The notes under the pieces are model-generated. The model saw only the letters and a list, made by a program, of their open reading frames with translations. It did not search any database and was not told the origin of the DNA. The translations under genes were made by a program, and so were the position numbers. Positions 2,321-32,000 of a stretch of 32,000 bases of DNA are shown one piece after another (position 1 is the first letter of the stretch; every line of letters starts with the position of its first letter). This stretch comes from Cupriavidus necator (GTDB lineage: Bacteria > Pseudomonadota > Gammaproteobacteria > Burkholderiales > Burkholderiaceae), in NCBI RefSeq assembly GCF_016127575.1, contig NZ_CP066018.1, positions 2,640,001 through 2,672,000 of the forward strand, in the 5' to 3' direction.

Positions 2321-2329
2321 GATTGGCGA

Positions 2330-13042: not shown

Positions 13043-13285
13043 TCAGTCTTCTGCATCCTTGCCAGCGGCCTTGCGCGGCAGCCGCCCTAGCGGCTGCTCC
13101 TGCGGCATCACATGGCGGTTGCCCGGCAATCCGCCCGGGTAGTCGACGATGCGCGCGGTGTCCTGGCGCCGCAGGCCATGCCATGCCTGGCCGCCGGCGG
13201 TACGCCCGCCGCCCAGGATGGCGGTCATGGCCTGCCGGTCGAGATCCATGCTGTCGGGCAAATCCTTGATGACGATCACTGCCAT
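13043..13285 (-). CDS. GG-leader peptide precursor, divergent basic cargo (pepA4, my label)
   Basis: MAVIVIKDLPDSMDLDRQAMTAILGG|GRTAGGQAWHGLRRQDTARIVDYPGGLPGNRHVMPQEQPLGRLPRKAAGKDAED. The leader is in the same 26-aa register as its five paralogs (D8 L9, L15 D16, M20, I23, G25 G26). The same ccGGAGAc..ATG initiation region is used. Confidence 0.55.
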   Translation of the reverse strand: MAVIVIKDLPDSMDLDRQAMTAILGGGRTAGGQAWHGLRRQDTARIVDYPGGLPGNRHVMPQEQPLGRLPRKAAGKDAED

Positions 13286-13389: not shown

Positions 13390-13662
13390 TCAGACTGCGG
13401 CGAAATTGCCGGCCCATTGCGACGGGTTGACGTTGACGCGCACCGGGCCGAAGTCGGGGCCGACGATGCTGTTGTTGAGCGTGTTGACGTTGATGCTCTG
13501 CAGCTGCGCGATGTTCTGGTTGACGTTGACGGTGACGTTGGCCAGCGGGCCGACGCTGCCGACACCGCGGCTGAGCCACGAGTTGCCGCCGCGTACGGCG
13601 CACAGCGAGGCACGGTCGAGTTCTTTGCTCAGGGCGAGATCGCGGACGAGGATCGATGACAT
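13390..13662 (-). CDS. GG-leader peptide precursor, divergent Asn/Val-repeat cargo (pepA3)
   Basis: MSSILVRDLALSKELDRASLCAVRGG|NSWLSRGVGSVGPLANVTVNVNQNIAQLQSINVNTLNNSIVGPDFGPVRVNVNPSQWAGNFAAV. Good RBS (aaaggagcaccaccATG). Leader in the family register. Confidence 0.7.
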   Translation of the reverse strand: MSSILVRDLALSKELDRASLCAVRGGNSWLSRGVGSVGPLANVTVNVNQNIAQLQSINVNTLNNSIVGPDFGPVRVNVNPSQWAGNFAAV

Positions 13663-13744: not shown

Positions 13745-14014
13745 TCAGCCGAAGATGTTGTTGGTGGCGTTCTGGTTGGTGTGCACGTCGGACTTGACGT
13801 GGTCCAGGAAGGCCGAGCCGTTGCCGTTCAGGTTGGTCACGGTCTGCATCTGCGCGATGCTTTGCGTGGCGTTGATGCTGTTGTCCAGCGACAGCCTGAT
13901 CGGCGTGTAGACGGCGGCGAAGGGCAGGTAGGCCAGGCCGCCGCGCACGGCGTGCATGCGCTTGCTGTCGAGGGTTTCGGCGGCGGGCAGGTCCTTGATG
14001 GTCAGCGTGGTCAT
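13745..14014 (-). CDS. GG-leader peptide precursor (pepA2)
   Basis: MTTLTIKDLPAAETLDSKRMHAVRGG|LAYLPFAAVYTPIRLSLDNSINATQSIAQMQTVTNLNGNGSAFLDHVKSDVHTNQNATNNIFG. 89 aa; hydrophobic residues at -4, -7, -12 relative to the GG. Confidence 0.8.
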   Translation of the reverse strand: MTTLTIKDLPAAETLDSKRMHAVRGGLAYLPFAAVYTPIRLSLDNSINATQSIAQMQTVTNLNGNGSAFLDHVKSDVHTNQNATNNIFG

Positions 14015-14483: not shown

Positions 14484-14665
14484 CGATTTATTTTCGATGT
14501 CGGCTTGCGGGCACTGGCTGCGGGCGCTGCCGCATGCTACGGGTGACGGGCCGCGGCCAACAGGCGGCGTGCCGGTGTTGGCGCGGCCGCGACAGTGGCG
14601 CGCCAAAGGCGATGCGATTGGCAGGGGGCGCCCGCGCGCGGCGTTGCACGCCGGCTTCGCATGGT

Positions 14666-14694
14666 TTGCGCATGCCTTGGGTGCGCACTAGTAT
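14666..14694 (+). promoter_or_regulatory. Candidate sigma70 promoter of the kinase gene (TTGCGC-17 nt-TAGTAT)
   Basis: tTTGCGCatgccttgggtgcgcacTAGTATcc, ~50 nt upstream of ATG 14747. Confidence 0.3.
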
Positions 14695-14746
14695 CCATCT
14701 CGAAGGCAGGCATATCCGCATCGTGGGATGCGCCGTGCCAGCAACC

Positions 14747-16798
14747 ATGTCGGGGCATCCGGTGGCCAGTCTCAAAGAACTGATCCGCAAGTTCCAGAAC
14801 GGCGGTCTCTCCGACGACGAGTTTGTTGCGTCGTTCGAAACGGCGCTGGCGCAGGATCCCACCACGCCCAGCCAGGCCGCGCGCGTGGTCATCGAGGAAA
14901 ACACGCGCTTCCCGTTCCCGCCCGCGGTCTATGCCGAAGTCATGCGGCGCATCGAGCGCCGCGGCGCCACGCAGTACGACGGCGCCACCGAGGCCACGCG
15001 CCTGGCCGGCACGCAGACGGGCTCGCTGTATGCGACCTCGCCCGAGCCGGGCACGCTGCCGCAGGCGGCGCATACCAAGGGCGTGGGCGATACGCTGAAC
15101 GGCCGCTTCGTGCTGGAAGAATGCCTGGGCGTGGGCGGCATGGGCACGGTCTACAAGGCGCTCGACCTGCGCAAGCTGGAAGCCTCGGACCGCAAGCCCT
15201 ATATCGCCATCAAGGTGCTGAACCTGCAGTTCAGCGGGCACCCCAAGTCGCTGATGGCGCTGCAGCGCGAGGCGCGCAAGGCGCAGACGCTGGCGCACCG
15301 GAATATCGTCACCGTCTATGACTTCGACCGCGACGGGCCGGTGGTCTTCCTGACCATGGAATACCTGTCAGGCTCTTCGCTCAACCATGTGCTCAAGGCC
15401 CCGGGCTTCACCGGCATGCCGATGGCGCGCGCCATGTCGATCATCAACGGCATGGGCAATGCGCTGGCATACGCGCACGAGCGCGGCTTCGTGCACTGCG
15501 ACTTCAAGCCCGCCAACGTCTTCCTGACCGCCAACGGCGAGGTCAAGGTGATCGACTTCGGCATCGCGCGCGGCTTCCTGCCGCCGGCCGACGAGTCCGA
15601 CCGGACCGTGTTCGATCCCGGCTCGCTGGGTGGCATGACGCCAGCCTACGCCAGCCCGGAGATGTTCGACCATTGCGAGCCCGACCCGCGCGACGACATC
15701 TTTGCGCTGGCCTGCGTGACCTATGAACTGCTGACCGGCAAGCATCCCTACCAGCGGCTCTCGGCCAACCAGGCGCGCGATGCCGGGCTCAAGCCGGCGC
15801 AGCCGCCGCAGTTGAGCCGCACGCAGTGGAAGACCCTGCGCGAGGCGCTGTCGCTCGACCGCGAGACACGCACGCCCACCGTCGCGCGCTTCCTGCATGG
15901 CATGAGCGCGGTGCCGGTGGTGTCCACGCGGCGCCCCTCGCCGCTGATGGCAGGCGGCGCGCTGGCCGTGCTGGCGGGCGTGTCGGCGATCGGCTACTAC
16001 GCCTGGCATTCGCAGCGCCAGGCCGAAGCACCGGCTGGCGATGCGCGCGTCGAGGCCCCGGCTACACCGGTGCCCGCAGCGCCGGTCATCCCGCCCGCAC
16101 CGGCTGCCCGCCCGGCGGTGCTGTCGATGGCCGACGTCACGAAGATGCTGGCCGCGGTGCCGTGCTCGCTGCTCACCGCCACCCAGCAGGCGCAGACGTT
16201 GCGTGTGCGTGGCTTCCTGGCCGAGAGCGTCGGCGCCGTGCGGCTGCGCGAGCAGCTCAGCGCGTTGCCGGGCGTCAAGGAGCTCAAGGGCGTGTCGATC
16301 GACACCCAGCCGCTGGCCGCCGACAAGTGCGACGTGGCCACCCTGATCGCGCCGTACTGGTCGGGCCACCGCGAAGGGGGCACGGCTTCGTCGCTGCGGC
16401 TGCGCGGCCAGGGCACGCAGCTGACCGAAGGGTCACCGCTGGTGCTGGATCTGCGCACGCCGGCGCGCGACTCCTATGTCTATGTCGATTACTTCGCGGC
16501 CGACGGCAAGGTGGCGCACATGGTGCCGAGCGCGCGCGTGCCCGCCCACCAGGCGCCGCCCAGCCATGGCGCCACGGTTGGCGACGGTGGCGACTGGATC
16601 ATCTCCGGGCCGTTCGGCACCGAGCTGGTGGTGTTGCTGACCACGCCCGCGCCGCTGTTCGATGGCCGGCGCGCCGAGGTCGAGCTGCACAAGGACTACC
16701 TGAAGGCACTGGAAAAGCCGCTGGCGCAGATGGCGCGCACCTATGGCCGGGACCGCATCAGCGCGGACCTGGTGCAGATCTCCACGCGCGCGCGCTGA
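14747..16798 (+). CDS. Transmembrane Hanks-type Ser/Thr protein kinase (non-RD) with a periplasmic DUF4384-like C-terminal domain
   Basis: Track ORF 14534..16798 trimmed to ATG 14747 (MSGHPVASLKELIRKF...); GTG 14723 is an alternative. GVGGMGTVYKA, IAIKVL, HCDFKPANVF (HRD->HCD), VIDFGIA, TPAYASPE. TM segment LMAGGALAVLAGVSAIGYYAW. C-terminal SYVYVDYFAADGKVAHMVPS...ELVVLLT resembles DUF4384. Confidence 0.9.
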   Translation: MSGHPVASLKELIRKFQNGGLSDDEFVASFETALAQDPTTPSQAARVVIEENTRFPFPPAVYAEVMRRIERRGATQYDGATEATRLAGTQTGSLYATSPEPGTLPQAAHTKGVGDTLNGRFVLEECLGVGGMGTVYKALDLRKLEASDRKPYIAIKVLNLQFSGHPKSLMALQREARKAQTLAHRNIVTVYDFDRDGPVVFLTMEYLSGSSLNHVLKAPGFTGMPMARAMSIINGMGNALAYAHERGFVHCDFKPANVFLTANGEVKVIDFGIARGFLPPADESDRTVFDPGSLGGMTPAYASPEMFDHCEPDPRDDIFALACVTYELLTGKHPYQRLSANQARDAGLKPAQPPQLSRTQWKTLREALSLDRETRTPTVARFLHGMSAVPVVSTRRPSPLMAGGALAVLAGVSAIGYYAWHSQRQAEAPAGDARVEAPATPVPAAPVIPPAPAARPAVLSMADVTKMLAAVPCSLLTATQQAQTLRVRGFLAESVGAVRLREQLSALPGVKELKGVSIDTQPLAADKCDVATLIAPYWSGHREGGTASSLRLRGQGTQLTEGSPLVLDLRTPARDSYVYVDYFAADGKVAHMVPSARVPAHQAPPSHGATVGDGGDWIISGPFGTELVVLLTTPAPLFDGRRAEVELHKDYLKALEKPLAQMARTYGRDRISADLVQISTRAR

Positions 16799-18355: not shown

Positions 18356-18781
18356 ATGTCCAGACGATTCCTGTTCCGCCTGCTGGCGGTTGCCGCCCTC
18401 GCCGCGGCCCCGTCGCTGTCGCTGTCGACGGCAGCCCCGCCCAATGCCGAGGCCTACATCATCTGGCCGCACGATGGCACGGTCATCAGCGGCGGCAAGT
18501 TCTGGGTGCGCATGGGCCTGCGCAATATGGGCGTGTGCCCCAAGGGCGTCGAGTCGCCGCGCTGCGGGCACCACCACCTGCTGGTCGACACCGAGCTGCC
18601 GCCGCTGGACAAGGAAATCCCTTCGGACAAGAACCACCTGCACTTCGGCGCGGGCGAGACCGACGCGCGCATTGAGTTGCCGCCCGGCAAGCACACGCTG
18701 CAATTGCTGATGGGCGATGCCAAGCACGTGCCGTTCGAGCCGCCGATCTATTCGAAGAAGATCACGATCACGGTGAAATAG
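18356..18781 (+). CDS. Secreted DUF4399-family protein (copy 1)
   Basis: Track ORF trimmed to ATG 18356 (RBS gggagg). Signal peptide MSRRFLFRLLAVAALAAAPSLSLSTA. GHHHLLVD, HLHFGAGETD, LPPGKHTLQLLMGD motifs. Confidence 0.75.
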   Translation: MSRRFLFRLLAVAALAAAPSLSLSTAAPPNAEAYIIWPHDGTVISGGKFWVRMGLRNMGVCPKGVESPRCGHHHLLVDTELPPLDKEIPSDKNHLHFGAGETDARIELPPGKHTLQLLMGDAKHVPFEPPIYSKKITITVK

Positions 18782-19492: not shown

Positions 19493-19508
19493 TGGCACGC
19501 TCCCTGCG
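19493..19508 (+). promoter_or_regulatory. Sigma54 (-24/-12) promoter of pepB1-pepB2
   Basis: gcTGGCACGCTCCCTGCGAT: TGGCAC-N5-CTGC with GG-N10-GC spacing. The ~69-nt leader to ATG 19588 is highly similar to the pepA1 leader (cctcc.gagcgcgacaccaacccgatgctcga...ccttcctctacc.ggagaccatcATG). Confidence 0.75.
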
Positions 19509-19587: not shown

Positions 19588-19857
19588 ATGACCACGCTGA
19601 CCATCACCGACCTGACCACCGTCGACACCCTGGACCGCAAGGGCATGCTCGCCGTTCGCGGCGGCCGCACCCTGCTCCCGTTCATGCCGGTGTACCACCC
19701 GCTCAACCTGTCGTTCGACCACAGCATCACCGCCGTGCAGGAAATCGCGCAGATGCAGACCGTCACCAATATGAATGGCAACGGCTCGGCCTTCCTGGAC
19801 CACGTGAAGTCCGACGTGCACACCAACCAGAACGCCACCAACAACATCTACGGCTGA
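19588..19857 (+). CDS. GG-leader peptide precursor (pepB1)
   Basis: Track ORF 19315..19857 trimmed to ATG 19588. MTTLTITDLTTVDTLDRKGMLAVRGG|RTLLPFMPVYHPLNLSFDHSITAVQEIAQMQTVTNMNGNGSAFLDHVKSDVHTNQNATNNIYG. Confidence 0.8.
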   Translation: MTTLTITDLTTVDTLDRKGMLAVRGGRTLLPFMPVYHPLNLSFDHSITAVQEIAQMQTVTNMNGNGSAFLDHVKSDVHTNQNATNNIYG

Positions 19858-19904: not shown

Positions 19905-20174
19905 ATGACCACGCTGACCATCAAAGACCTGTCCGCCACCGAAACCCTCGACAGCAAGCGCATGCATGCCGTGCGCGGCGGCCTGTCGTACCTGCCCTTT
20001 GCCGCCGTGTATGCGCCGATCAAGCTCGCGTTCGACAGCAGCATCACCGCCAAGCAGGAAATCGCGCAGTTGCAGTCCGTGACCAACCTGAACGGCAATG
20101 GCTCGGCCTTCCTCGACCATGTCCGTTCGCATGTGGATACCAACCAGAACGCCAGCAACAATATCTATCGTTGA
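19905..20174 (+). CDS. GG-leader peptide precursor (pepB2)
   Basis: MTTLTIKDLSATETLDSKRMHAVRGG|LSYLPFAAVYAPIKLAFDSSITAKQEIAQLQSVTNLNGNGSAFLDHVRSHVDTNQNASNNIYR. Confidence 0.8.
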   Translation: MTTLTIKDLSATETLDSKRMHAVRGGLSYLPFAAVYAPIKLAFDSSITAKQEIAQLQSVTNLNGNGSAFLDHVRSHVDTNQNASNNIYR

Positions 20175-20358: not shown

Positions 20359-21822
20359 GTGCCTGAATCCATCACTGCCTCGCCCGCGGTTGCGTCAACC
20401 GCCGCGCCGCACCGTACCGCCTGGCTGGCCGCGCTGGCCGCCTGCGCGGCATTGCTGGCAGGCTGCGCCGATTTCCGGCCGCCGGTGTACCAGCGCCCGG
20501 AAACCCCGGCCAAGGCCGAATGGACGCGCCAGGAATCGATCACGGTATCGCCGGCCGAAACGGTGCAGCCCAACTGGTGGCTGGGCTTCAAGGATCCTTA
20601 CCTGAACAGGCTGATCGACCAGGCGCTTTACGGCAACTACGACATCAAGGTGCTGGCGGCGCGCATCCGCGTGGCCAACGCGCAGATCGGCGAGGCCCGT
20701 GCCGGCGGGCTGCCGGTGATCGATATCGGCGCCGGTGCGAGCTTCGAGAAGAGCACCGGGCAGAAGTCCACCTGGACCTATAACGCCGGCGCCCAGCTGA
20801 ACTGGGACATCGACATCTGGGGCAAGGTCGAGAAGGGCGTGCAGGCGCAGACCGCCGAGTTCCGCGCCACCGAGGCCGACTGGCGCGCCGGCTACCTGAC
20901 GCTGGTGTCCAATGTATCGACCACTTACTTCCAGATCCTGCAGTTCGACGAGCAGATCGAGCAGCAGGCGCGCACCGTGGCCAAGAACGGGCAGATCCTG
21001 TCGACCTACCAGGCCATGTACCAGAACGGCCTGGTGCCAAAGATCCGGGTGATGCAGCAGCAGGCGGAAATCAACCGCCTGAACAAGGACCTGCTGGAGC
21101 TGCGCCGTTCGCGCGATGTGGCTGAAAACGCGCTGGCCACGCTGGTCGGTGTGCCCGCGGGCAATCTCAAGGTGCCGGCGGGGCGCCTGCAGGACCGCGT
21201 GCAGCCGCCCGCGGTGCCGGCCGGGCTGCCGTCGCAACTGCTGGCGCGCCGCCCGGACGTGGTGGCGGCGGAATACCGCGTGCTGGCCGCGTACAACATC
21301 GTTGGCCAGGCCCGTTTGGCGCAGTTGCCCACCATCAGCCTGACCGCGCGCGGCGGCACCGCCAGCTTTGCGCTGAGCGACCTGCTCAAGTCATTCACCT
21401 TCGGCTTCATGCCCAGCATCAACCTGCCGATGCTCGACCCGAGCGTGCGCGCGCGCGTGAAGACCACCGAGGCGCAGGTGGGCGTGGCGGAAAACGAATA
21501 TGGCCGCACCGTGATGACCGCGTTCGAAGAGGTGGAGAGCGCACTGGTCAATGTCGACGCGCACAAGAAGCAGCGCATCGAGCTGCAGCAGCAGGTTGAG
21601 CAGCTGCGCGTCGTGTCCGCGCAGATCGAGGCGCAACTGAAGGAGGGCGTGGTCTCGCAGCTGGAAGTGTTCGAGACCGAGCGCTCGCTGCTGGCCGCGC
21701 AACTGCAGTTGTTGGCGGTCCACCAACAGATCCTGGCCGACACCGTCACCCTGTACAAGGCGCTTGGCGGTGGCTGGCCCGATACCGACGTGCGCAACGC
21801 GGCGTCGAATCCGCCGCAGTAA
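20359..21822 (+). CDS. NodT-family (OprM/TolC-like) outer-membrane efflux lipoprotein
   Basis: Track ORF trimmed to GTG 20359 (aggaa RBS 5 nt upstream). Lipobox LLAGC|ADF. WWLGFKDPYLNRLIDQALYGNYDIKVLAARI is the typical NodT N-terminus. Two OEP repeats; ends LYKALGGGW. Confidence 0.85.
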   Translation: MPESITASPAVASTAAPHRTAWLAALAACAALLAGCADFRPPVYQRPETPAKAEWTRQESITVSPAETVQPNWWLGFKDPYLNRLIDQALYGNYDIKVLAARIRVANAQIGEARAGGLPVIDIGAGASFEKSTGQKSTWTYNAGAQLNWDIDIWGKVEKGVQAQTAEFRATEADWRAGYLTLVSNVSTTYFQILQFDEQIEQQARTVAKNGQILSTYQAMYQNGLVPKIRVMQQQAEINRLNKDLLELRRSRDVAENALATLVGVPAGNLKVPAGRLQDRVQPPAVPAGLPSQLLARRPDVVAAEYRVLAAYNIVGQARLAQLPTISLTARGGTASFALSDLLKSFTFGFMPSINLPMLDPSVRARVKTTEAQVGVAENEYGRTVMTAFEEVESALVNVDAHKKQRIELQQQVEQLRVVSAQIEAQLKEGVVSQLEVFETERSLLAAQLQLLAVHQQILADTVTLYKALGGGWPDTDVRNAASNPPQ

Positions 21823-21956: not shown

Positions 21957-21984
21957 TTGACTAGCCTTTGCCGTCGCCTACTAT
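21957..21984 (+). promoter_or_regulatory. Candidate sigma70 promoter (TTGACT-16 nt-TACTAT) of the FHA-HlyD-PPIase-ABC-EBP operon
   Basis: gaTTGACTagcctttgccgtcgccTACTATgttc, ~65 nt upstream of ATG 22049. Confidence 0.4.
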
Positions 21985-22048
21985 GTTCTTAGTCGCTTCA
22001 TCCCCTGGCCTGCCGCCGCGGCAGCCGCGCTGTTGGCTTGCTGGAAAC

Positions 22049-24658
22049 ATGGCTCCTGACGAAGCACTGATCATGGAAATGCCGGTGAAAATGGCCCAGG
22101 GATTCACGCGGGAATTCTCTCAGGATCTGGCGCAGGAATTCGATGTGTTCCTGACGCCCGTGTCGCGCCCGGAGCTGGGCGAGATCCGCATCGACGAAGA
22201 CCTGTTCGCCGTCGGACGCAGCGAACTGCCGTTCGCCGCCTACCCCGAAGACCTGGCCGCACCGCTGTCGCGCCGGCATGCGCGCATCTTCGCCGAGCAT
22301 GGCGCGGTCTATGTGGCGGATCTCGGCAGCAAGAACGGCACGCGCGTGAACGGCGCGGCGGTGGCGCGCCAGCCGGCGCAGCTCAGCGATGGCGATGAGG
22401 TGGCCTTCGGGCCGGCGCTGTCGTTCCGGGTCCGGCTGTCGCCGCGCGCGGCGCAGCCCGAGCCGCCGCGGGTAGCGGTGACGTTGGTGCCCGAGCGCGG
22501 CGATGTCGGGCTGCAGCCGCTGCACGTGGACGGCTTCCCCTACCTGATCAGCAAGGCCGACGACGCCTTCGCGCGCTACCGCGACAGCTATCCGCAGCAG
22601 GTCAACTACCTGTCGCGGCGCCACGCGCACGTGTACCTCAAGGGTGGCGTGCCATTCGTTGAGGACCTGGGCAGCACCAACGGCACCTTCGTCAACGGCA
22701 AGCGCCTGGCCGACCACGGCGTGCCGCTGGACGACGGCGACCTGATCGCCTTTGGCGGCAACCACTTTGTCTACAAGGTGCAGGTCCAGCACACCGGCGA
22801 CGGCGATGCCACCGCGACGCATTCGATGCTGCAGCCAGTCGCTGCGCCCGACACGCCGCCCGCATCCCAGGCTTCGCCCGTGCGCGACGAGGATGACCGC
22901 ACTACCTTTGTCGGTGCCGCCGATTCCTTCCTCGACATCTTCTGCGTCGACTATGCCGCGCAGCAGGACGACGAGGTCAACGCCGAGGCCGAGGCACAGG
23001 CCGCGGCGGCCACGGCCGCGCACGACGGCGCGCAGGCACGCCGCAAGCGCGGGCGTGCCGCGCTGCTGCTGGCCGAAGGTGCCAGGCAGTTCGGCCTGAA
23101 CGATTCCGTACGCACGCGGCGCGCGGCGCGATGGGGCGGCGCGTTGCTGTTGCTCGCGCTGCTGGCGGGGGCGGCCGTGTACTGGCGCGGTGCGCCGGAG
23201 CGCGAAGTGCAGGCGCTGTTTGCCGCAGGCGATCACGCGCGCGCGGCGCAGGCCGCCGACAACTACCTGGCGCGTCATCCCGGCGATGCCCAGGTGCAGG
23301 CCATCGGCACCGAGGCACTGATGCGTGCCGACGTGCCCGCTTTCGCCGCCAGGCTGAAGGCCGGTGATTTCAGCGGCGCCGATGCCGTGCTGGCCCGGAT
23401 GCGCAAGCTCAGCGCGCACAATGCCGATGCGCGGCCGCTGGTGGCGGAACTCGACTGGATCGGCCGGCTCGAACGCTTCACCGCGCAGCGCGGCGCCGAC
23501 ACGCCGATCCGCCTCTACACCGACGAGGCGCCGATCCGGCAACTGCTGGCGTACTGGAACCAGGACACCACCGCGCACCAGCGCGCGCTCGGGCGCATCG
23601 CGGCCGATGTGCCGGCGTTCCGCGATCTCTACGCCGATGCGCTCAGCGACGTGCGTCGCCTGCAGAACGACGCCTCGGTCTACCTGGCGGCGATCGACCG
23701 GCTGAACACCACCATTGCCGCCGAACTCGGCCGCGACCGCCCGGAGGCATTGCAGCCCGTCATCGCCGAGTACCGCGAGAAGTATCCGCGCCTGGCCGGG
23801 CTGGACCGCGTGCAGTCAGACCTGGACCGCTACACCGCGCTGATGCAGGCACTGCGCGCGCGCCGGCCCGGGCCGCTGGTGGCGCGCCTTGCCGACAGCC
23901 GCTTCGCCACGCCGCCGTTCCAGGCGCAGTTCAACCAACTGGCCGCGCGCCTGCCGCCGCCGGAGATGGTGCGCCAGTATGCCGGTGCGGCCAGGGCGTG
24001 GCAGCAGGGCGACAGCGCCGCAGCGCTCGCGGGGATCAAGCAGATCAGCGGCGGCCCCTGGGCCGAGGACCTGGCGCGCGACCTGTCGCACAAGCAGAAG
24101 GTGGCGGCGCAGTACGCCGAGCTGCAGTCCGCGCGCGGCAGCAAGGGCTATGAGGACCGGCTGCTGGGCTTCTACGCCATGCTCGATGCCGCCGATGACG
24201 GCCACTTCGCCAAGGCGGTCGAGGCCGACGTCAACGGCGTGCGCGACAGTGCCCTGCGGCGCGCGCGGGAACTGATGGGCAGCGCCGTCGCCGCATGGAA
24301 GCAATACCGCAGCAATGGCGTGATCGGCAGCGAGCAGCGGCTCGAGCCCGGCATCTCGCCCAGGTTCCGCGCGCAGGCCCGGTTGCTGTCGCAGGCACAG
24401 GATGACGCGCGCCAGGGCATGCGCATCTTCACGCAACTGCGCGCGGGCGAAAGCGCCGACCTGGCGCAACTCGCCAAGATCGAGGAAGAGATCCGCGCCG
24501 AGGCCGACCAGCAGCGGCACGCGCTGCGCGAGTTGCGCACCGTGCTCGATCCCGCCGTGCTCAAGACCAAGCTGGAGCTGATCGGCGGTGAAGACACCGG
24601 CAAGGCGCCGGAGCCGGCCGCGGCTGCCGCGGCGCCACAGCAAGCGGGGCAGCCATGA
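22049..24658 (+). CDS. Membrane-anchored double-FHA-domain protein with a large helical (TPR-like) periplasmic region
   Basis: Start ambiguous (ATG 22049, 22073, 22079 or 22091; 22091 has ggtga upstream). FHA1: VGRSELPF...LSRRHARIF...DLGSKNGTRVNG. FHA2: LISKADDAF...LSRRHAHVY...DLGSTNGTFVNG (G-R replaced by S-K). TM segment WGGALLLLALLAGAAVYW. The stop overlaps the HlyD ATG (ATGA, 24655-24658). Confidence 0.8.
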   Translation: MAPDEALIMEMPVKMAQGFTREFSQDLAQEFDVFLTPVSRPELGEIRIDEDLFAVGRSELPFAAYPEDLAAPLSRRHARIFAEHGAVYVADLGSKNGTRVNGAAVARQPAQLSDGDEVAFGPALSFRVRLSPRAAQPEPPRVAVTLVPERGDVGLQPLHVDGFPYLISKADDAFARYRDSYPQQVNYLSRRHAHVYLKGGVPFVEDLGSTNGTFVNGKRLADHGVPLDDGDLIAFGGNHFVYKVQVQHTGDGDATATHSMLQPVAAPDTPPASQASPVRDEDDRTTFVGAADSFLDIFCVDYAAQQDDEVNAEAEAQAAAATAAHDGAQARRKRGRAALLLAEGARQFGLNDSVRTRRAARWGGALLLLALLAGAAVYWRGAPEREVQALFAAGDHARAAQAADNYLARHPGDAQVQAIGTEALMRADVPAFAARLKAGDFSGADAVLARMRKLSAHNADARPLVAELDWIGRLERFTAQRGADTPIRLYTDEAPIRQLLAYWNQDTTAHQRALGRIAADVPAFRDLYADALSDVRRLQNDASVYLAAIDRLNTTIAAELGRDRPEALQPVIAEYREKYPRLAGLDRVQSDLDRYTALMQALRARRPGPLVARLADSRFATPPFQAQFNQLAARLPPPEMVRQYAGAARAWQQGDSAAALAGIKQISGGPWAEDLARDLSHKQKVAAQYAELQSARGSKGYEDRLLGFYAMLDAADDGHFAKAVEADVNGVRDSALRRARELMGSAVAAWKQYRSNGVIGSEQRLEPGISPRFRAQARLLSQAQDDARQGMRIFTQLRAGESADLAQLAKIEEEIRAEADQQRHALRELRTVLDPAVLKTKLELIGGEDTGKAPEPAAAAAAPQQAGQP

Positions 24659-26037
24659 AGGACGATGCCCGCCAGGGCGGCCTCAAGCCACTCTCCGAGG
24701 CGCTGGAAGACCACAGCGCCGAGGGCATCGGCCTGCTGAGTGCCGAGCCGTCGCGCCTGGGGCTGCTGACCATCGTCACGACTTTCACGCTGGTGTTGTG
24801 CGGGCTGGTGTGGTCCTTCGTCGGGCATGCCGATGTCATTGTCACGGCGCAGGGCACGCTGGCGCCGGAATCCGAGGTGCGCCGCTTCTATGCCCCGGTG
24901 GACGGCGAGCTGGCCGACCTCTACGTGGCCGAGGGGCAACCGGTGTCCAAGGACGACGTGCTGGCGCGCCTGAATGCGCGCGGCGCGATCGAGGCCGCGG
25001 CCAACGCGCTGGAAGCGCAGCTCAAGCTGGAAGACTCCGAGCGCGAATGGAAGCAGTTCCCCGACAAGAAGGCGCTGATGGAACGCCGCGCGGCGGCGCT
25101 CAAGCAGCAGATCGACGTGGCCACGCGCCAGCACGAGACCCGCATCGCCGAAGGCACCACGCGGCTTGCCGAACAGCAGCGCGCGCAGTTGCAGGAAGCG
25201 CGCAGCAACCTCGAGAACGCCCGGCGCGCGCGCGAATTCGCGCGCCAGGAGCAGGACCGATACGCGCGCCTGCTGGCGTTGCCGGGTGGCGGTGGCGTTT
25301 CGCAGTCGCAGGTGGATGCCAAGCGCGCCGCGGCGCAGGACGCGGAGAACAACCTGCGCGTGGCGCAGTCGCGGCTGACGGAGCTGGACGCACGCCTGGG
25401 CCGCGAGCTTACCCAGGCCAGTTCCCAGCTAGAAAGCAGCGGCCAGGACCTGGCCGGGCTGCGCGTGCAGTACGACGCGGCGCTGCGCGAGATCGCCAAC
25501 ACCGAGGACAAGCTGCGCCTGCAGGTGCAGACCGCGCGCCTGGTGGCGGACGCGGCAGCGCGCATCCGCTTCGAGAACATCGACAAGGACAACTTCCTGC
25601 TGATCCTGGCGCCGGTGTCGGGCGTGATCACCGATGTCACCTCCACCCAGCGCGGCGACAAGGTGCAGGCCAACACGCCGCTGGGCGGCATTGCCCCCAA
25701 GGATGCGCGCCCGGTGGTGAAGATCGTCATCGCCGAGCGTGACCGCGCTTTCCTGCGCGAGGGCCTGCCGGTCAAGCTCAAGTTCAGTGCCTTCCCGTAC
25801 CAGCGCTACGGGATCATCGAGGGCACGCTGGAATTCATCTCGCCCGCGACCAAGCCGGGCGGACCCGACAAGCAGCCGGTCTACGAGGGCCGCGTGCGGC
25901 TGGCGCGCGACTACTACGCGGTGGCCGACAACAAGTATCCGCTGCGTTACGGCATGACCGCCACGGCAGAGATCGTGGTGCGCGAACGCCGCCTGATCGA
26001 CCTGGGGCTTGACCCCTTCCGCGAGGTGGCCGGCTAG
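24655..26037 (+). CDS. HlyD-family membrane-fusion / periplasmic adaptor protein
   Basis: N-terminal TM (LGLLTIVTTFTLVLCGLVWSF), long coiled-coil (residues ~110-300), C-terminal beta-barrel motifs (ISPVSG-like APVSGVITDV, VKIVIAERD, LKFSAFPYQRYG, GMTATAEI). Confidence 0.85.
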   Translation: MKDDARQGGLKPLSEALEDHSAEGIGLLSAEPSRLGLLTIVTTFTLVLCGLVWSFVGHADVIVTAQGTLAPESEVRRFYAPVDGELADLYVAEGQPVSKDDVLARLNARGAIEAAANALEAQLKLEDSEREWKQFPDKKALMERRAAALKQQIDVATRQHETRIAEGTTRLAEQQRAQLQEARSNLENARRAREFARQEQDRYARLLALPGGGGVSQSQVDAKRAAAQDAENNLRVAQSRLTELDARLGRELTQASSQLESSGQDLAGLRVQYDAALREIANTEDKLRLQVQTARLVADAAARIRFENIDKDNFLLILAPVSGVITDVTSTQRGDKVQANTPLGGIAPKDARPVVKIVIAERDRAFLREGLPVKLKFSAFPYQRYGIIEGTLEFISPATKPGGPDKQPVYEGRVRLARDYYAVADNKYPLRYGMTATAEIVVRERRLIDLGLDPFREVAG

Positions 26038-26114: not shown

Positions 26115-26867
26115 ATGACTGGTATTGTGCGTATCGACGACGAGGTGCTTGGCTTCGAGGAGTTCGTGCGCTTGCTCAAGCTGACCGGACAGTTCGAAGG
26201 GCTGGTCGAGCAGATGGTGCGCGACAAGCTGACCGTGCACGCGGCAAAGCGGCAGGGCGTGGTGGTCACGCCGGAGGAGATCCAGGAACGCGCGGACCAG
26301 TTCCGCCGCGTGCAGGGCCTGCATCGCGCCGCAGACATGAATCACTACCTGGATGCGCTGAACATCAGCCTGGACGAATTCGAGGCCTTTGTCACCGACA
26401 GCCTGTACCAGGAGCGGATGATGGAGCAGGTGTGCAGCGAGGCCGCGGTGCAGGCGTACTTTGCGCTCAACTCGCCGCGCTTCGACAGCATCGAGGTCAG
26501 CCATATCGTGGTCGACAGCGAGGGCAAGGCCAAGGAGCTGATCTCGTACCTGCAGGATGATCCCGATGCCTTTGCCGAGATGGCGCGCGAGCATTCCATC
26601 GCCGACACGCGCGAGCGCGGAGGCGAGATCGGCAAGGTGCTGCGCGGCTCGCTCAAGACCGATATCGAGGCCAAGGTGTTCAATGCCGAGCCTGGCGACC
26701 TGCTGGGACCGTTCCCGTCGGCTGACCGTTCCTTCTTCGAAGTCTTCCTGGTGCGCGAAAAACACCCGGCCACCCTCGATAGCGAGGTGGCGGTGGAAGT
26801 GCGCCGCCTGCTGCGCGAAGACTGGCTGATGGCCAGGGCGCAGGAACATGTCATCGAAGCCCGCTAG
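26115..26867 (+). CDS. Cytoplasmic PpiC/parvulin-type peptidyl-prolyl cis-trans isomerase
   Basis: No signal peptide (MTGIVRIDDEVLGFEEF...). Rotamase domain SHIVVDSEGKAKELISYLQDDPDAFAEMAREHSIADTRERGGEIGKVLRGSL...EPGDLLGPFPSADRSFFEVFLV. The 3' end overlaps the ABC gene start by 20 nt. Confidence 0.8.
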   Translation: MTGIVRIDDEVLGFEEFVRLLKLTGQFEGLVEQMVRDKLTVHAAKRQGVVVTPEEIQERADQFRRVQGLHRAADMNHYLDALNISLDEFEAFVTDSLYQERMMEQVCSEAAVQAYFALNSPRFDSIEVSHIVVDSEGKAKELISYLQDDPDAFAEMAREHSIADTRERGGEIGKVLRGSLKTDIEAKVFNAEPGDLLGPFPSADRSFFEVFLVREKHPATLDSEVAVEVRRLLREDWLMARAQEHVIEAR

Positions 26868-29800
26868 CGCGAGCGGCGAGCCCGCCGCCCCGCCTGCCCC
26901 GGACCAGCCGGAGGCAGGATCGGCGCTGGCCGCCTTCCTCGCCACCGTCGAGATCCTGTCGGTGCTGGTGCCGGAGGAGCTGGCACGCCTGGCGGAAGCC
27001 GCGCAGGTGCTGACCTTCGGCTTTGGCGACACCGTCTGCAATGCCGGCGAAGCGGCGCCGGGCCTGTTTATCGTCAAGTCCGGCTCGGTGCGCGTGTTCA
27101 ACGAGGAGCACGGCAAGGAAATCAGCATGGGCGTGCGCAAGGCCGGCGAGGTCTTTGCCGATATCGCGCTGCTGCGCGACTACCGGCATGAGTCGTCGGT
27201 GCGCGCCTCGGGCAAGACCGAACTGCTGCTGATCCCGCGCAGCGTGGGCGAGCCGGTGGTGGCCGGCAACCCGGCGGCGCTTGCGTTTATCACCAGCTAT
27301 GTCGCGATCAGCTCGGCCGGCGGCTTTGTCGCGCGGCTGTTCGACCTGCGCGGCAAGCTCGACAAGCAGGAGCTGGAAGACGCCGTGCGCAGCGTCGGCG
27401 TCAAGCGCGTGGCGGCCGGCAAGGAGATCCTGAAGCAGGACGGCCGCGAAGACCGGCGCCTGTACGTGGTGCGCCAGGGCACGGTGCGCATCGTGCGCAG
27501 CGAAGAGGGCAGCGAGTACCCGCTGGCGACGCTGGGGCAGGGCGACATCTTCGGCGAGCGCGCCTGCGTGATGCGGCAGGAGCAGCTGGCCTCGGCCATT
27601 GCCGATACCGACGTGCGCCTGCTGGTGATTCCCGAGAAGACGGTGCAGCTGATTTTGGAGCGCAACCCGCGCCTGCGCGAGGTGCTGGAAGAGCGCATCC
27701 GCGTGCTGGACCGCGAGTTGCATCGGCAGAAGAAGCTGGCCGAACGGCGCAAGCGCCCGGTGCTGCTGGACCTGCATTCAAAGCCCGAGCTCGGCGAAAA
27801 GCTGATCCGCCGCTTCGCGCTGGTGGAGCAGGCCGAGGAGATGGATTGCGGCGCGGCCTGCCTGGCGATGATCTGCCGGCACTACGGCATCCCGATGACG
27901 CTGGGCAAGCTGCGCGAACTGGCCAATGTGACCACCCAGGGCGCCACGCTCGACAGCCTGGCGCGCGCCGGCGAAGCGCTCGGCTTCACCACGCGCGGGG
28001 TGCAGTGCACGCGGGATTCGCTGATGGGGTTCGAGCTTCCCTTCATCGTGCACTGGGAGGGGTACCACTACGTGGTGGTGTACGGGATCTCGTCGCGCTG
28101 GGTGTGGGTGGCCGACCCGGCCATCGGCTTCCGCAAGATGAGCGCCGAGGAGTTCGAGCGCGGCTGGAGCGGCACCTGCCTGCTGTTCACGCCGGGCGAG
28201 AGCATGACCCAGCTGTCGGTGTCGCGCTCGCCGTGGCTGCGCTTTATCGGCTACCTGGCGCCGTACAAGAGGATCCTGGCGCACCTGTTTCTGGCCACCT
28301 TCGTGATCCAGATGCTGGGGGTGGTCCCGCCGCTGATTATCCAGAACATCCTGGACGGCGTGGTGGTGCACCAGAACGTGGGGCTGCTGAACCTGCTGAT
28401 CGCGGGGCTGATCATCTCCAACGTGTTCTCGCAGCTGATGTCTACGATTCGCGCGTATCTGGCCAACTTCATGGTGCGCAACATGGATTTCGCCATGATG
28501 TCGCACTTCTTCAAGCACACGCTGTCGCTGCCGCTGTCGTTCTTTGCCAAGCGCAAGACCGGGGACATCTTCGCGCGCTTCCAGGAGAACCAGACCATCC
28601 GCGCCTTCCTGACCGAGTCGACCGTGACCACGGCGCTGAACCTGCTGATGGTGTTTATCTACTTCACCATCATGTTTCTCTACAACGTCAAGCTGACGCT
28701 GCTGCTGATCGCCTTCGTGATCCCGATCGCGGCGCTGACGGTGGTGGTGACGCCCAAGGTCAAGACCTATGCGCGCGAGGTGTTCGCGGCATCGACCGAT
28801 GCCAAGGCCTACCTGATGGAAACGCTGGGCGGCGCCGAGACCGTCAAGGGCATGGGCATCGAGCGCCCGGTGCGGCTGCGCTGGGAGCGCAAGTACGCCA
28901 AGGCGCTGGACGCGCAATACCGGGCACAGGCCTTCCACATCCTGGTGGGGCTGGTGAGCCAGCTGCTCAACGCCGCCACCACCATCGCGGTGCTGTGGGT
29001 GGGCGCGACGCTGGTGCTGGAGCGCGAGCTCACCATCGGCCAGCTGATCGCCTTCAATGCCTTCATGGGCAGCGTGCTGGCGCCGCTGATGGGGCTGGTG
29101 GCGTTGTGGGGCCAGCTCAACGATGCCGGCGTGGCGATGGAGCGCCTGGGCGACGTGCTCGACCTGGAGCCCGAGCAGAAGCCGCAGGACGTGCTGTCGC
29201 GCGTGATGCTGCCCGACCTGCAGGGCGAGATCGTGATGAAGGACCTGTACTTCCGCTACGGCGGCGAAGACACGCCCTATGTGCTGGAGAACATCAGCTT
29301 CGCCATCCGCCCTGGCGAGATGGTGGCCATCGTCGGGCGCAGCGGCTCAGGCAAGACTACGCTGGCCAAGCTGCTGGTGGGCTTCTACAAGCCTACCGAG
29401 GGCTCGATGACAGTGGACGGCTATGACCTGAACGTGATCGACGCGGCGTTCTACCGCGCGCAGGTGGGCTACGTGATGCAGTCCAACCTGCTGTTCTCGG
29501 GGACCATTGCCGAGAACATCGCCTGCGGCGACGACAGCCCGGACCGGCGCCGCATCGAGGAGGTGGCGCGCATGGCCGATGCCCACGCCTTTATCAGCAA
29601 GCTGCCGCTGGGCTACGAGCAGGTGGTGGGCGAGCGTGGTATCGGGCTTTCCGGCGGGCAGATCCAGCGCCTGTGCATTGCCCGCGCGCTGTACCACGAC
29701 CCGCGCCTGCTGGTGTTCGACGAGGCCACCTCGGCGCTCGACACGCAGTCAGAGAGCAACATCCTGGCGAATATGCAGGAGATCCTGCGCGGGCGCACCG

Positions 29801-29958
29801 CGGTCATCATCGCGCACCGGCTCAGCACCATCATGCAGGCCGATAAGATCCTGGTGCTGTATGAAGGCGCCATCGTCGAGCAGGGCCGGCATGAGGAGCT
29901 GATCGAGCGCAAGGGCATGTATTTCCAACTGGTGCAGAAGCAACTGAGCGCAGCATGA
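26848..29958 (+). CDS. Peptidase-containing ABC transporter (PCAT): 2 x cNMP-binding-like domains + C39 Cys-peptidase + 6-TM ABC domain + NBD
   Basis: 1036 aa. CNB-like 1 is about aa 30-140 and CNB-like 2 about aa 160-285. C39 domain: EEMDC(334)GAACLAMICRHYG, HWEGYHYVVVYG, WVADP (Cys/His/Asp present). NBD: GRSGSGKTT, LSGGQIQRLCIARAL, LLVFDEATSALD, IIAHRLS. Confidence 0.92.
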   Translation: MSSKPASASGEPAAPPAPDQPEAGSALAAFLATVEILSVLVPEELARLAEAAQVLTFGFGDTVCNAGEAAPGLFIVKSGSVRVFNEEHGKEISMGVRKAGEVFADIALLRDYRHESSVRASGKTELLLIPRSVGEPVVAGNPAALAFITSYVAISSAGGFVARLFDLRGKLDKQELEDAVRSVGVKRVAAGKEILKQDGREDRRLYVVRQGTVRIVRSEEGSEYPLATLGQGDIFGERACVMRQEQLASAIADTDVRLLVIPEKTVQLILERNPRLREVLEERIRVLDRELHRQKKLAERRKRPVLLDLHSKPELGEKLIRRFALVEQAEEMDCGAACLAMICRHYGIPMTLGKLRELANVTTQGATLDSLARAGEALGFTTRGVQCTRDSLMGFELPFIVHWEGYHYVVVYGISSRWVWVADPAIGFRKMSAEEFERGWSGTCLLFTPGESMTQLSVSRSPWLRFIGYLAPYKRILAHLFLATFVIQMLGVVPPLIIQNILDGVVVHQNVGLLNLLIAGLIISNVFSQLMSTIRAYLANFMVRNMDFAMMSHFFKHTLSLPLSFFAKRKTGDIFARFQENQTIRAFLTESTVTTALNLLMVFIYFTIMFLYNVKLTLLLIAFVIPIAALTVVVTPKVKTYAREVFAASTDAKAYLMETLGGAETVKGMGIERPVRLRWERKYAKALDAQYRAQAFHILVGLVSQLLNAATTIAVLWVGATLVLERELTIGQLIAFNAFMGSVLAPLMGLVALWGQLNDAGVAMERLGDVLDLEPEQKPQDVLSRVMLPDLQGEIVMKDLYFRYGGEDTPYVLENISFAIRPGEMVAIVGRSGSGKTTLAKLLVGFYKPTEGSMTVDGYDLNVIDAAFYRAQVGYVMQSNLLFSGTIAENIACGDDSPDRRRIEEVARMADAHAFISKLPLGYEQVVGERGIGLSGGQIQRLCIARALYHDPRLLVFDEATSALDTQSESNILANMQEILRGRTAVIIAHRLSTIMQADKILVLYEGAIVEQGRHEELIERKGMYFQLVQKQLSAA

Positions 29959-31271
29959 AGCTATACAACCAGGGAGCCACCCCCGCCTCGGTCACGTCCC
30001 CGGTGTCGTTCGCCGGGCTGATCGAGAAGATCGAGATCCTGCGTTCCACGCTGCGCTGGTCGTCGCGGCTTGACCGGCCGGAGATCGAGAAGCTGCTCAA
30101 GCAGGTCACCACGCTGCGCGACGAGGTGATGGGGCTGTCGCACAAGGAGCGCTTCGTGCAGGCCGCGTCGGCCGAGGCGGCCCCGCCGCAGGAAGAAGTC
30201 GAGCGCATGCCGCGCGCGCGCCGGCAGGCACTGGTTGAGCGCAGCTTTATTTTCGAAGGGACCTTCGGCGACAACCCCAAGTTGCTGGAGGCACTGGAGA
30301 TTGCCGAGAAGGCGGCGCCGACCGACCTGCCGGTGCTGATCGATGGAGAGAGCGGCACCGGCAAGGAGCTGATGGCCAAGGTGATCCATGCCAATGGCTC
30401 ACGCACCGACAAGCCGTTTATCTCGGTCAACTGCGGCGCCATCCCCGACAGCCTGCTTGAATCCGAGCTGTTCGGCCACAAGAAGGGCGCCTTCACCGGC
30501 GCCAGCAATGACCGCCGCGGCAAGTTCGAGAGCGCGCATACCGGCACCATCTTCCTGGACGAGATCGGCGAGCTGCCGCTGACCGGGCAGGTCAAGCTGC
30601 TGCGCGTGCTGGAGGCGCACGAGATCCAGCGCGTGGGCTCGGACGAGGCGATCTCGGTCGATACGCGCATCGTCGCGGCGACCAACAAGGACCTGCGCCG
30701 CATGAGCCAGGCCGGCACCTTCCGCGAAGACCTGTTCTATCGCCTGAGCGTGATCCACGTCAGCCTGCCGTCGCTGCGCGAGCGGCGCGACGAGATCCCG
30801 CTGCTGGTGTCGTACTTCAGTGACGAGGCCGCCGGCATGCTCAAGCGCCGGCCACTCAAGCTGACGCCGCGGCTGCGCGACTTCCTGCTGCACTACGACT
30901 ACCCGGGCAATATCCGCGAACTGCGCAACCTGATGTACCGGCTGAGCTGCCTGGCCGGCGACACCGCCGACCTGGCCCAACTGCCGCAGGACATCCGCCC
31001 CAGGCCCGCCGCACTGGCGGTGGTGGGCAATGGCCCCGCCGCTGCCGACATTGCCATGGCGACGTCCCTCAGCGAAGCCAAGCGCGCCGCCAGCGACGAG
31101 GCCGAGCGGGCCTTCCTCGAACGGGGCTTGCAGGAGGTCGGCGGCACCGTCGCCGAACTGGCGCGGCGCTTCGACATGAACCGCTCGCACCTGCAGATGC
31201 TGCTGAAGAAGCACGGCATCCACTCGAAGGATTTCCGCGCCAACCGGCAGGCCGAAGGCGGCAAGGGGTAG
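29955..31271 (+). CDS. Sigma54-dependent enhancer-binding protein (bEBP) with a non-receiver ~115-aa N-terminal region and a Fis-type HTH
   Basis: GESGTGKELMAKVIH (Walker A), ESELFGHKKGAFTGA (GAFTGA loop), FLDEIGELP, RVGS, RIVAATN, FREDLFYRL, C-terminal GGTVAELARRFDMNRSHLQMLLKKHGI. The ATG overlaps the ABC stop (ATGA, 29955-29958). Confidence 0.9.
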   Translation: MKLYNQGATPASVTSPVSFAGLIEKIEILRSTLRWSSRLDRPEIEKLLKQVTTLRDEVMGLSHKERFVQAASAEAAPPQEEVERMPRARRQALVERSFIFEGTFGDNPKLLEALEIAEKAAPTDLPVLIDGESGTGKELMAKVIHANGSRTDKPFISVNCGAIPDSLLESELFGHKKGAFTGASNDRRGKFESAHTGTIFLDEIGELPLTGQVKLLRVLEAHEIQRVGSDEAISVDTRIVAATNKDLRRMSQAGTFREDLFYRLSVIHVSLPSLRERRDEIPLLVSYFSDEAAGMLKRRPLKLTPRLRDFLLHYDYPGNIRELRNLMYRLSCLAGDTADLAQLPQDIRPRPAALAVVGNGPAAADIAMATSLSEAKRAASDEAERAFLERGLQEVGGTVAELARRFDMNRSHLQMLLKKHGIHSKDFRANRQAEGGKG

Positions 31272-31299: not shown

Positions 31300-32000
31300 T
31301 CAGGCGTCCAGCTCGGGATTGACCAGGGTCTTGTCAGAGCCGTACGGGTCCGCCGCACGCAGCACCACCACCGACACGTTGTCGCGGCCGCCGGCATCGA
31401 GCGCCATCTGCACCAGCGTCGGCGCGGCCTGCGCAACGTCCTGCTGCGCCAGCACCGCCGCGATGTCGTCATCGTCGACCTCGTTGCTCAGGCCATCGCT
31501 GCACAGCAGGTACACGTCGCCATCGGCGACCTCGGTCAGCAGCTGCTCCGGCGCCAGCGTCGGGGCCGCGCCGACGGCGCGTGTGATGGTGTTCTGCGCG
31601 GGATGGTGGCGCGCTTCTTCCGGGGTGATCAGCCCGCGCGCCAGCAGGCGCTCGACCTGGTTGTGGTCGCGCGTGAGGCGCGCGAACTGGCCGCCGCGCA
31701 GCCGGTACAGGCGGCTGTCGCCGGCCCACACGCAGGCGCAACGGCGATCGCCCGCCAGCATTACCACCACCGTGCTGCCGATGCAGCGCACGCCCAGGCG
31801 CGCCGCTTCATCGACCAGCGCCAGGTTCACGCCCTGCAGCGCCGCGCGCGTGGCGTCGACCCGGTCTTCCAGCCGGGGCTGCGGCGGCAGCGTGGCCAGC
31901 GCCTGGACCACCGCCTGGCTGGCGAAGTCTCCCACGGCATGGCCGCCCATGCCGTCGGCCACTGCCCACAGGTCCTGGCTGGGCAGATCCAGGCAAGCGT
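31300..32000 (-). CDS. PP2C-family Ser/Thr protein phosphatase (5' end beyond the right edge of the window)
   Basis: The track ORF starts at M 31962, but the frame stays open to 32000 (..ACLDLPSQDLWAVADGMGGHAVGDFAS). The ADGMGGH motif is internal in PP2C enzymes. LLCSDGLSNEV and GGRDNVSVVVL are the C-terminal PP2C motifs. Confidence 0.85.
   Translation of the reverse strand, partial: ACLDLPSQDLWAVADGMGGHAVGDFASQAVVQALATLPPQPRLEDRVDATRAALQGVNLALVDEAARLGVRCIGSTVVVMLAGDRRCACVWAGDSRLYRLRGGQFARLTRDHNQVERLLARGLITPEEARHHPAQNTITRAVGAAPTLAPEQLLTEVADGDVYLLCSDGLSNEVDDDDIAAVLAQQDVAQAAPTLVQMALDAGGRDNVSVVVLRAADPYGSDKTLVNPELDA

Follow-up and report, generated by a model that had tools for sequence, protein, structure and literature searches.

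A 32,000-nucleotide stretch of Cupriavidus necator DNA (assembly GCF_016127575.1, contig NZ_CP066018.1, positions 2,640,001 to 2,672,000; hereafter the window) encodes, at positions 26848 to 29958 of its forward strand, a peptidase-containing ABC transporter (PCAT) that carries two cyclic nucleotide-binding (CNB) domains at its N terminus. In both domains the key arginine of the phosphate-binding cassette (PBC) is replaced, by histidine in CNB1 and by glutamine in CNB2, and the replacements are conserved in a clade of orthologues. Judging from the sequences, canonical binding of cAMP or cGMP has very probably been lost in this clade. We give an even chance to the reading as a whole, namely, that the protein is a working PCAT in which a rebuilt CNB module senses an effector other than a cyclic nucleoside monophosphate (cNMP) and gates leader cleavage and export.

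A sequence-only reading of this DNA had described a 1036-residue protein with the architecture CNB-CNB-C39-TMD-NBD (TMD, transmembrane domain; NBD, nucleotide-binding domain), and both the open reading frame (ORF) and Pfam agree with that description. The Pfam scores (cNMP_binding, PF00027, two copies, 117.6 bits; Peptidase_C39, PF03412, 135 bits; ABC_membrane, PF00664, 155 bits; ABC_tran, PF00005, 119 bits) all lie far above the cut-offs, and the GC content at third codon positions (GC3 = 0.92) is in line with the other coding regions of this window of 65 to 72% GC. The gene and its parts are as follows.

26848..29958 (+), PCAT gene, ATG start, 1036 residues, CNB-CNB-C39-TMD-NBD by Pfam
26938..27279 (+), CNB1, residues 31 to 144; 79.8 bits against a custom canonical CNB profile, AlphaFold2 (AF2) beta-barrel with a predicted local distance difference test score (pLDDT) of >90
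27154..27207 (+), PBC1, F103 to A120 (FADIALLRDYRHESSVRA), with H114 in place of the Arg and E115 in place of [S/T/A]
27352..27705 (+), CNB2, residues 169 to 286; 84.6 bits against the custom profile, best Pfam stretch 186 to 273
27550..27603 (+), PBC2, F235 to A252 (FGERACVMRQEQLASAIA), with Q246 at the Arg position and E245 just before it
27667..27813 (+), basic alpha-C helix (residues 274 to 301) and linker from CNB2 to C39, from the AF2 secondary structure
27814..28200 (+), C39 peptidase domain, residues 323 to 451, with Q328, C334, H407, and D423; Pfam, 135 bits
28285..29085 (+), TMD of the ABC exporter, residues 480 to 746; Pfam ABC_membrane, 155 bits
29230..29937 (+), NBD, with ABC_tran at residues 813 to 962; Pfam, 119 bits, motifs located

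The C39 domain had been called competent-looking on the strength of C334, a His in GYHYVVV, and an Asp in VADP. These residues are correctly placed (C334 in MDCGAAC, H407 in GYHYVV, D423 in VADP), and neither they nor the oxyanion residue Gln328 vary among 23 aligned orthologues. The NBD motifs are also intact (Walker A GRSGSGKT at 830, signature LSGGQ at 934, Walker B FDEATS at 957, H-loop AHRL at 989), and the C39-TMD-NBD core aligns over its full length with HlyB, PCAT1, and ComA (E about 1e-137). Against the named NCBIfam subfamilies the protein scores below the cut-offs of TIGR03796 (NHLM_micro_ABC1; 564 versus 853.3), TIGR01193 (bacteriocin_ABC; 487.1 versus 523.85), and TIGR01846 (HlyB; 613.8 versus 725.55). 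Going by its motifs, the transporter is catalytically complete, with double-glycine (GG) substrates and type 1 secretion system partners encoded nearby.

The AF2 model of residues 1 to 460 (mean pLDDT, 86.7) contains two CNB barrels, each with the short PBC helix intact, and a 28-residue alpha-C helix that runs from CNB2 into C39. The top Foldseek matches of the N-terminal module are the tandem CNB domains of the protein kinase A regulatory subunit (PKA-R) and of PKG (E about 1e-18); cAMP-independent PKA-R subunits of trypanosomes are also found among the matches.

Phosphate-binding cassettes and their conservation

The register of the two cassettes was determined in three independent alignments. 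In phmmer comparisons with solved PKG and PKA structures, FADIALLRDYRHESSVRA pairs with FGERALLYDEPRSATIIA and FGERACVMRQEQLASAIA pairs with FGERALLYDEPRTASIIS, the structure-side pattern being FGERALLYDEPR[ST]A in both pairings, and an identical register results when MAFFT aligns the protein with 77 full-length family representatives. A custom profile hidden Markov model (HMM), built from the CNB domains of 34 members with the canonical Arg in both cassettes plus Escherichia coli CRP, aligns both CNBs ungapped at maximal posterior ("*"), with the consensus Arg opposite H114 (codon CAT, 27187 to 27189) and Q246 (codon CAG, 27583 to 27585), and thus places no Arg at the PBC position in either domain. 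All three alignments agree with the earlier by-eye assignment, in which Arg becomes His114 and Gly-Glu becomes Ala-Asp in CNB1, whereas in CNB2 Arg becomes Gln246 and Gly-Glu is kept. The residues in question are A104-D105, where orthologues have AE, GE, or AD, and G236-E237, which is GE in 79 of 79 orthologues. Each cassette also has an acidic neighbor of the phosphate site: E115 takes the place usually held by Ser, Thr, or Ala, and E245 that usually held by Pro. The label "Arg-less" used below carries a caveat, since the cassettes contain further arginines (R110, 100% conserved; R243, 96%). R113, which adjoins H114, was considered as a shifted replacement Arg and rejected on the grounds of its conservation of only 56% and of a gap-free alignment at maximal posterior.

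About 90 orthologues with 50 to 96% identity were surveyed, from Cupriavidus, Paraburkholderia, Caballeronia, Noviherbaspirillum, and gammaproteobacterial and other metagenome-assembled genomes; the identity to C. necator was 96% at the amino-acid level. An Arg at the PBC position occurs in none of 88 CNB1 and none of 79 CNB2 sequences, so the loss first noticed in the one protein extends to its orthologues. The position is His in 73/88 CNB1 sequences, where Glu or Asp follows in 81/88, and Gln in 77/79 CNB2 sequences. Among 25 nonredundant Burkholderiaceae sequences, mean entropy is 0.44 to 0.45 in the cassettes versus 0.56 to 0.61 in the whole CNB domains; R110, H114, E115, and R119 of PBC1 and G236, E237, C240, Q244, E245, and Q246 of PBC2 are 100% conserved. 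The cassettes are constrained more strongly than the rest of the domains, and therefore the CNB module would still be functional. As far as the alignments tell, the Arg substitutions are conserved replacements, not decay, and their retention under selection argues for an altered but retained function rather than a dead domain. Two threonines also distinguish the Arg-less clade, T124 (27217 to 27219; Thr in 79/95) and T228 (27529 to 27531; Thr in 81/103), where relatives with the canonical Arg have Val/Leu and Tyr/Phe, respectively. The clade is present in 546 species genomes. Several metagenome assemblies have the orthologous PCAT split into two adjacent ORFs (for instance, L001, 10001 to 13046, and L002, 10001 to 13054), and most database matches are labeled "partial"; the split ORFs are probably frameshift or assembly errors rather than true gene splits.

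When 1.84 billion cluster representatives were searched with a profile (E ≤ 1e-30), 792 clusters of tandem-CNB PCATs at 50% identity were found. Full-length members have about 1010 to 1070 residues, with the C39 Cys at about residue 305 to 365, from which we conclude that the tandem-CNB N terminus is the family norm. Of the cassettes in the 50%-identity representatives, 46/83 in CNB1 and 50/72 in CNB2 have the Arg, and Arg-bearing cassettes usually have the textbook form FGE-x-AL-x5-PR[ST]ATVRA. Because most family members keep the canonical cassette, double Arg loss appears specific to the clade studied here and, most parsimoniously, derived. The canonical members are annotated as "cyclic nucleotide-binding domain-containing" or "peptidase domain-containing ABC transporter." Cyanobacterial HetC-like proteins constitute a third natural form, with one recognizable CNB, Leu or Phe at the Arg position in 104/114, and Gly-Gly in place of Gly-Glu.

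The operon and its double-glycine precursors

The PCAT gene belongs to an operon in which stop and start codons overlap; the gene order is two GG precursors, outer-membrane efflux lipoprotein (OEP), two-FHA membrane protein, HlyD, cytoplasmic peptidyl-prolyl isomerase (PPIase), PCAT, and sigma-54 activator. Synteny was counted over 82 loci, and it is also kept in distant metagenomic relatives. The neighboring genes, with their synteny counts, are listed below.

14534..16798 (+), Ser/Thr protein kinase (STK) with C-terminal DUF4384, upstream of the operon; domain match and synteny
20359..21822 (+), OEP, NodT type, lipobox LLAGC; GTG 20359 is the probable true start
21968..24658 (+), 896-residue protein with two N-terminal FHA domains, one transmembrane segment, and a long unannotated C-terminal region; 69/82 loci
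24655..26037 (+), HlyD-family membrane fusion protein, by Pfam; 69/82 loci
26115..26867 (+), PPIase of the PpiC type, SurA-like at its N terminus and lacking a signal peptide; Pfam Rotamase
29955..31271 (+), sigma-54 enhancer-binding protein, start overlapping the PCAT stop; Pfam Sigma54_activat, 236 bits; 80/82 loci
31300..31962 (-), PP2C phosphatase, convergent, downstream of the operon, by Pfam; 68/82 loci

The ABC exporter, membrane-fusion, and outer-membrane genes give the operon a tripartite type 1 layout, which is kept in 65 to 69 of the loci. The end of the PPIase gene overlaps the PCAT start by 20 nucleotides, and the gene directly precedes that of the PCAT in 81/82 loci; its product matches TIGR04500 ("putative peptide maturation system protein") weakly, at 84.5 bits with a cut-off of 180. 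The stop codon of the FHA-protein gene overlaps the HlyD start, so that the two appear to be translationally coupled, and in the distant relative L085 an FHA domain is fused to the N terminus of HlyD (2192 to 3961). Between the kinase gene and the first operon precursor lie an FGE-sulfatase-family gene (16844 to 18067, -; syntenic in 53/82 loci) and a DUF4399 gene (18203 to 18781, +; 59/82 loci). Elsewhere in the window, a DEAD-box helicase-like ORF (10306 to 12408, -; 700 residues) has a long Arg/Gly-rich C-terminal tail with repeated G-F-G-N-R/D-x-G.

Six precursors with leaders ending in AVRGG, identified by leader match, and two sigma-54 -24/-12 motifs were located.

13043..13285 (-), GG-leader precursor, 80 residues, different core family
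13390..13662 (-), GG-leader precursor, 90 residues, different core family
13745..14014 (-), GG-leader precursor, 89 residues
14069..14338 (-), GG-leader precursor, 89 residues
14419..14433 (-), sigma-54 motif TGGCACAGTCCCTGC, 81 nucleotides upstream of the precursor ATG at 14338
19493..19507 (+), sigma-54 motif TGGCACGCTCCCTGC, 81 nucleotides upstream of the precursor ATG at 19588
19588..19857 (+), GG-leader precursor, 89 residues, leader MTTLTITDLTTVDTLDRKGMLAVRGG, core beginning RTLL
19905..20174 (+), GG-leader precursor, 89 residues

The precursors of the window represent at least three core families; their cores are rich in Asn, Gln, Gly, and Ser and have no Cys. The two within the operon are concealed in longer mechanical ORFs, one in "orf180" and the other in the 5' part of the OEP ORF, whose mechanical start at 20098 overlaps the precursor gene. 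A 26-residue leader, invariant among the six precursors of the window, is common to 140 precursors in 65 loci, where it is joined to several unrelated core families. Its consensus is M-x-x-[LI]-x-I-[KR]-D-L-x5-L-D-x3-M-x-A-[VI]-R-G-G, and the N-terminal half (D-19 and L-18 at 100%) goes beyond the length of a typical GG leader, about 15 residues. In the low-GC relative L001 (53% identity), the long leader of a precursor at 14541 to 14831 (-) ends in Gly-Ser, not Gly-Gly (MLNIIVKDLEMSKELDKIAMMNIIGS). The pattern TGGCAC-N5-CTGC has only 2 matches in the window, with 0.43 expected by chance; a sigma-54 activator in the exporter operon, together with these motifs before precursors, suggests positive feedback on precursor expression. 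The operon apparently represents a conserved and undescribed secretion system for double-glycine peptides, under the control of sigma-54, STK, FHA, and PP2C, of which the Arg-less PCAT clade is a marker.

The canonical-Arg relative P0126 adjoins a PPIase gene and an FHA::HlyD fusion, from which the FHA association would predate Arg loss, and two other canonical-Arg members have unrelated gene contexts. No sigma-54 activator is present near the three canonical-Arg members examined that have enough flanking sequence, and no convincing precursors were found in the short flanks of canonical-Arg relatives. Across the five distant loci examined, Arg loss and gene context show no clean correlation.

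Proposed function of the CNB module

The proposed explanation is that PCAT, HlyD, and the outer-membrane lipoprotein form a type-1-like machine that would cleave and export peptides with double-glycine leaders, to which the tandem CNB module is a regulatory appendage presumably descended from cNMP-binding ancestors. The cyclic-phosphate site appears to have been rebuilt in the proteobacterial clade, with His plus Glu for Arg and loss of Gly-Glu in CNB1 and with Glu-Gln and retention of Gly-Glu in CNB2. Such a site would no longer take cAMP or cGMP in the canonical way and would most likely sense a non-cNMP effector instead. The signal might travel from the CNBs along the alpha-C helix of 28 residues into the neighboring C39 domain and so gate leader cleavage and export. 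That an alternative small-molecule ligand other than a cNMP exists, with the module still a sensor or gate, seems to us plausible, though somewhat short of even. CNB2 is a better candidate than CNB1 for a ribose-containing ligand because it retains the Gly-Glu ribose clamp.

The only CNB-PCAT studied by experiment is HetC from Nostoc sp. PCC 7120, whose cNMP region, at the N terminus, is essential for heterocyst formation; its N-terminal domain is not stabilized by cAMP, cCMP, c-di-GMP, or 2-oxoglutarate but is stabilized by GDP, GTP, and ppGpp, the last with a Kd of 59 µM (PMC10986499). The doubt about canonical cAMP/cGMP binding that the sequence-only reading had raised gains support from several sides: the key Arg is missing in both cassettes and an acidic residue lies beside the phosphate site in each; the changes are fixed clade-wide while sister lineages keep the textbook cassette; and HetC, whose N-terminal domain gains no stability from cAMP, cCMP, or c-di-GMP, provides a precedent, since HetC-like proteins are also Arg-less. 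Some points weigh against the proposed explanation. The ppGpp affinity of HetC is weak, and its site is unmapped; HetC was assigned to the Arg-less subfamily via primer-derived peptide tags, so that the cassette data are those of the subfamily and not HetC's own; and the derived state of the Arg-less clade rests on score ranking and parsimony. In addition, R110 and R243, conserved within the cassettes, could reach a phosphate, and His114, if protonated, could bind an anion.

Several other readings of the module have to be weighed. It might be free of ligand and act as a scaffold or dimerization unit, its pocket possibly filled by an intrinsic segment, which we regard as unlikely. CNB-homology domains that lack the Arg and hold an intrinsic ligand form a recognized class, represented by the KCNH (EAG/ERG) channels, whose domains have the CNB fold and no PBC Arg and are not known to bind cNMP; the long alpha-C helix resembles the dimerization helix of CRP, and ABC exporters are homodimers; moreover, CNB2 of HetC-like proteins is degenerate beyond recognition, which indicates that ligand sites can be lost in the family. 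A ligand-free module implies that the conserved cassette residues pack against C39, the NBD, or the partner protomer, whereas the invariant Gly-Glu clamp of CNB2 and cassettes that are more conserved than the barrels look more like a binding site, although they are not decisive. Residual, noncanonical binding of cAMP, cGMP, or another cyclic mononucleotide through R110 and R243 or a protonated H114 is very unlikely. The conservation of the two arginines, the unchanged length and short helix of the cassettes, and the Gly-Glu of CNB2 would be in its favor; however, the conserved E115 and E245 flank the phosphate position, and in PKA, CAP, HCN, and MloK1 mutants of the PBC Arg bind cNMP orders of magnitude more weakly. 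Nor does cAMP stabilize the HetC N-terminal domain (PMC10986499), and in trypanosomatid PKA-R, where a polar residue stands in place of Arg and a Glu has entered the cassette, these changes eliminate the response to cAMP and make the protein bind nucleosides, while reversion mutants regain cNMP binding (PMC10959531).

The CNB fold might also have been repurposed as a macromolecule-recognition module that reads the N-terminal half of the leader or makes a phospho-dependent FHA contact, in which case sigma-54-controlled peptide export would be licensed by the substrate or by Ser/Thr phosphorylation and not by a nucleotide; we think this improbable. A circuit in which the co-encoded STK, FHA protein, and PP2C dock on the CNB module or act on it, phosphorylation or FHA binding replacing the cNMP input, seems quite unlikely, even though these three genes are syntenic with the PCAT in most of the loci and the FHA::HlyD fusion, being at the cytoplasmic N terminus of HlyD, places an FHA domain beside the cytoplasmic domains of the PCAT. 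The conserved, clade-specific threonines T124 and T228 fit this circuit and are possible phosphosites because of the STK, FHA, and PP2C genes nearby, but an FHA::HlyD fusion and a PPIase also stand beside the canonical-Arg PCAT P0126, so that FHA does not track Arg loss, and the sigma-54 activator is an equally plausible FHA or STK target. A decidedly unlikely role is that of a second leader receptor beside the C39 groove, reading M-x-x-L-x-I-K-D-L. The unusual length of the shared leader and the conservation of its N-terminal half are in line with this role, the same long leader accompanies the Arg-less relative L001 despite its identity of only 53%, and the acidic cassette residues could pair with the conserved Lys/Arg at -20. 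Yet this support consists of correlations only, the surroundings of canonical-Arg relatives yielded no precursors to compare with, and no CNB domain that binds a peptide in trans is known.

Comparison with known systems

HetC resembles the query in having an N-terminal CNB-type region, a C39 domain, and an ABC exporter, with about 1040 residues and the catalytic Cys near residue 340, and the HetC-like subfamily likewise has an Arg-less cassette in a CNB region upstream of C39. However, HetC-like proteins have one recognizable CNB with Leu/Phe and Gly-Gly, in contrast to the two well-formed CNBs of the query, with their His-Glu and Glu-Gln. HetC-like proteins also carry the motif QQQSSSDCGAAC where the query has EEMDCGAAC; these differences in CNB number, cassette, and motif speak against orthology with HetC, and hetC has no adjacent membrane-fusion gene, unlike the query operon with its HlyD and OEP genes (PMC10986499).

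Trypanosomatid PKA-R (6FLO, 6HYI), which is unrelated to the query outside the CNBs, shares with it a tandem CNB arrangement in which both PBC arginines are replaced and an acidic residue is present in the cassette. The trypanosome Glu lies at the A202-equivalent position (G-E-x-E), whereas the query has Ala there (A107, A239) and its Glu elsewhere in the cassette. A trypanosome-type ribose-binding cassette was accordingly rejected for the query. By analogy, the two share a logic in which Arg loss is combined with a nearby negative charge. The KCNH domains are also CNB folds without the PBC Arg, like the query CNBs, and their pocket is occupied by an intrinsic ligand from the same chain.

Among exporters, PCAT1 of Clostridium thermocellum (4RY2, 6V9Z) and ComA (8HF7) have, like the query, a C39-TMD-NBD arrangement, a Cys-His-Asp peptidase, and GG-leader substrates. 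HlyB (7SGR) aligns with the query core, but its C39-like domain is noncatalytic; all three lack the N-terminal CNB extension of the query. The canonical tandem-CNB PCATs have the full CNB-CNB-C39-TMD-NBD architecture, and some adjoin HlyD, FHA, and PPIase genes; they differ in keeping FGE-x-AL-x5-P-R-[ST]-A in one or both cassettes. A role in anti-phage defense of the Pycsar-like kind was considered and rejected, as PADLOC returned only generic CNB, kinase, and AAA domain matches.

Fusions of CNB domains to exporters are common, and their role is almost unstudied, HetC being the only experimental case. We found no literature that treats this system in Cupriavidus or Burkholderiaceae, nor any on CNB-PCATs besides HetC; the 2012 paper of Zhang and Aravind and cyanobacterial genome-mining papers mention cNMP domains in other contexts only. 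The family exists in at least three natural forms, the canonical Arg/Arg form, the proteobacterial His-Glu/Glu-Gln form, and the cyanobacterial Leu/Gly-Gly form, which together constitute a comparative system for studying the gating of a secretion pump by a second-messenger domain and the drift of its ligand specificity, and the Arg-less clade is found in tractable hosts (for instance, Cupriavidus necator and Paraburkholderia). Its architecture is already annotated and widespread, and Arg-less CNBs are known in several other families, including one studied PCAT; what is new is the conserved His-Glu/Glu-Gln double variant and its fixed link to an apparently undescribed sigma-54-driven GG-peptide operon.

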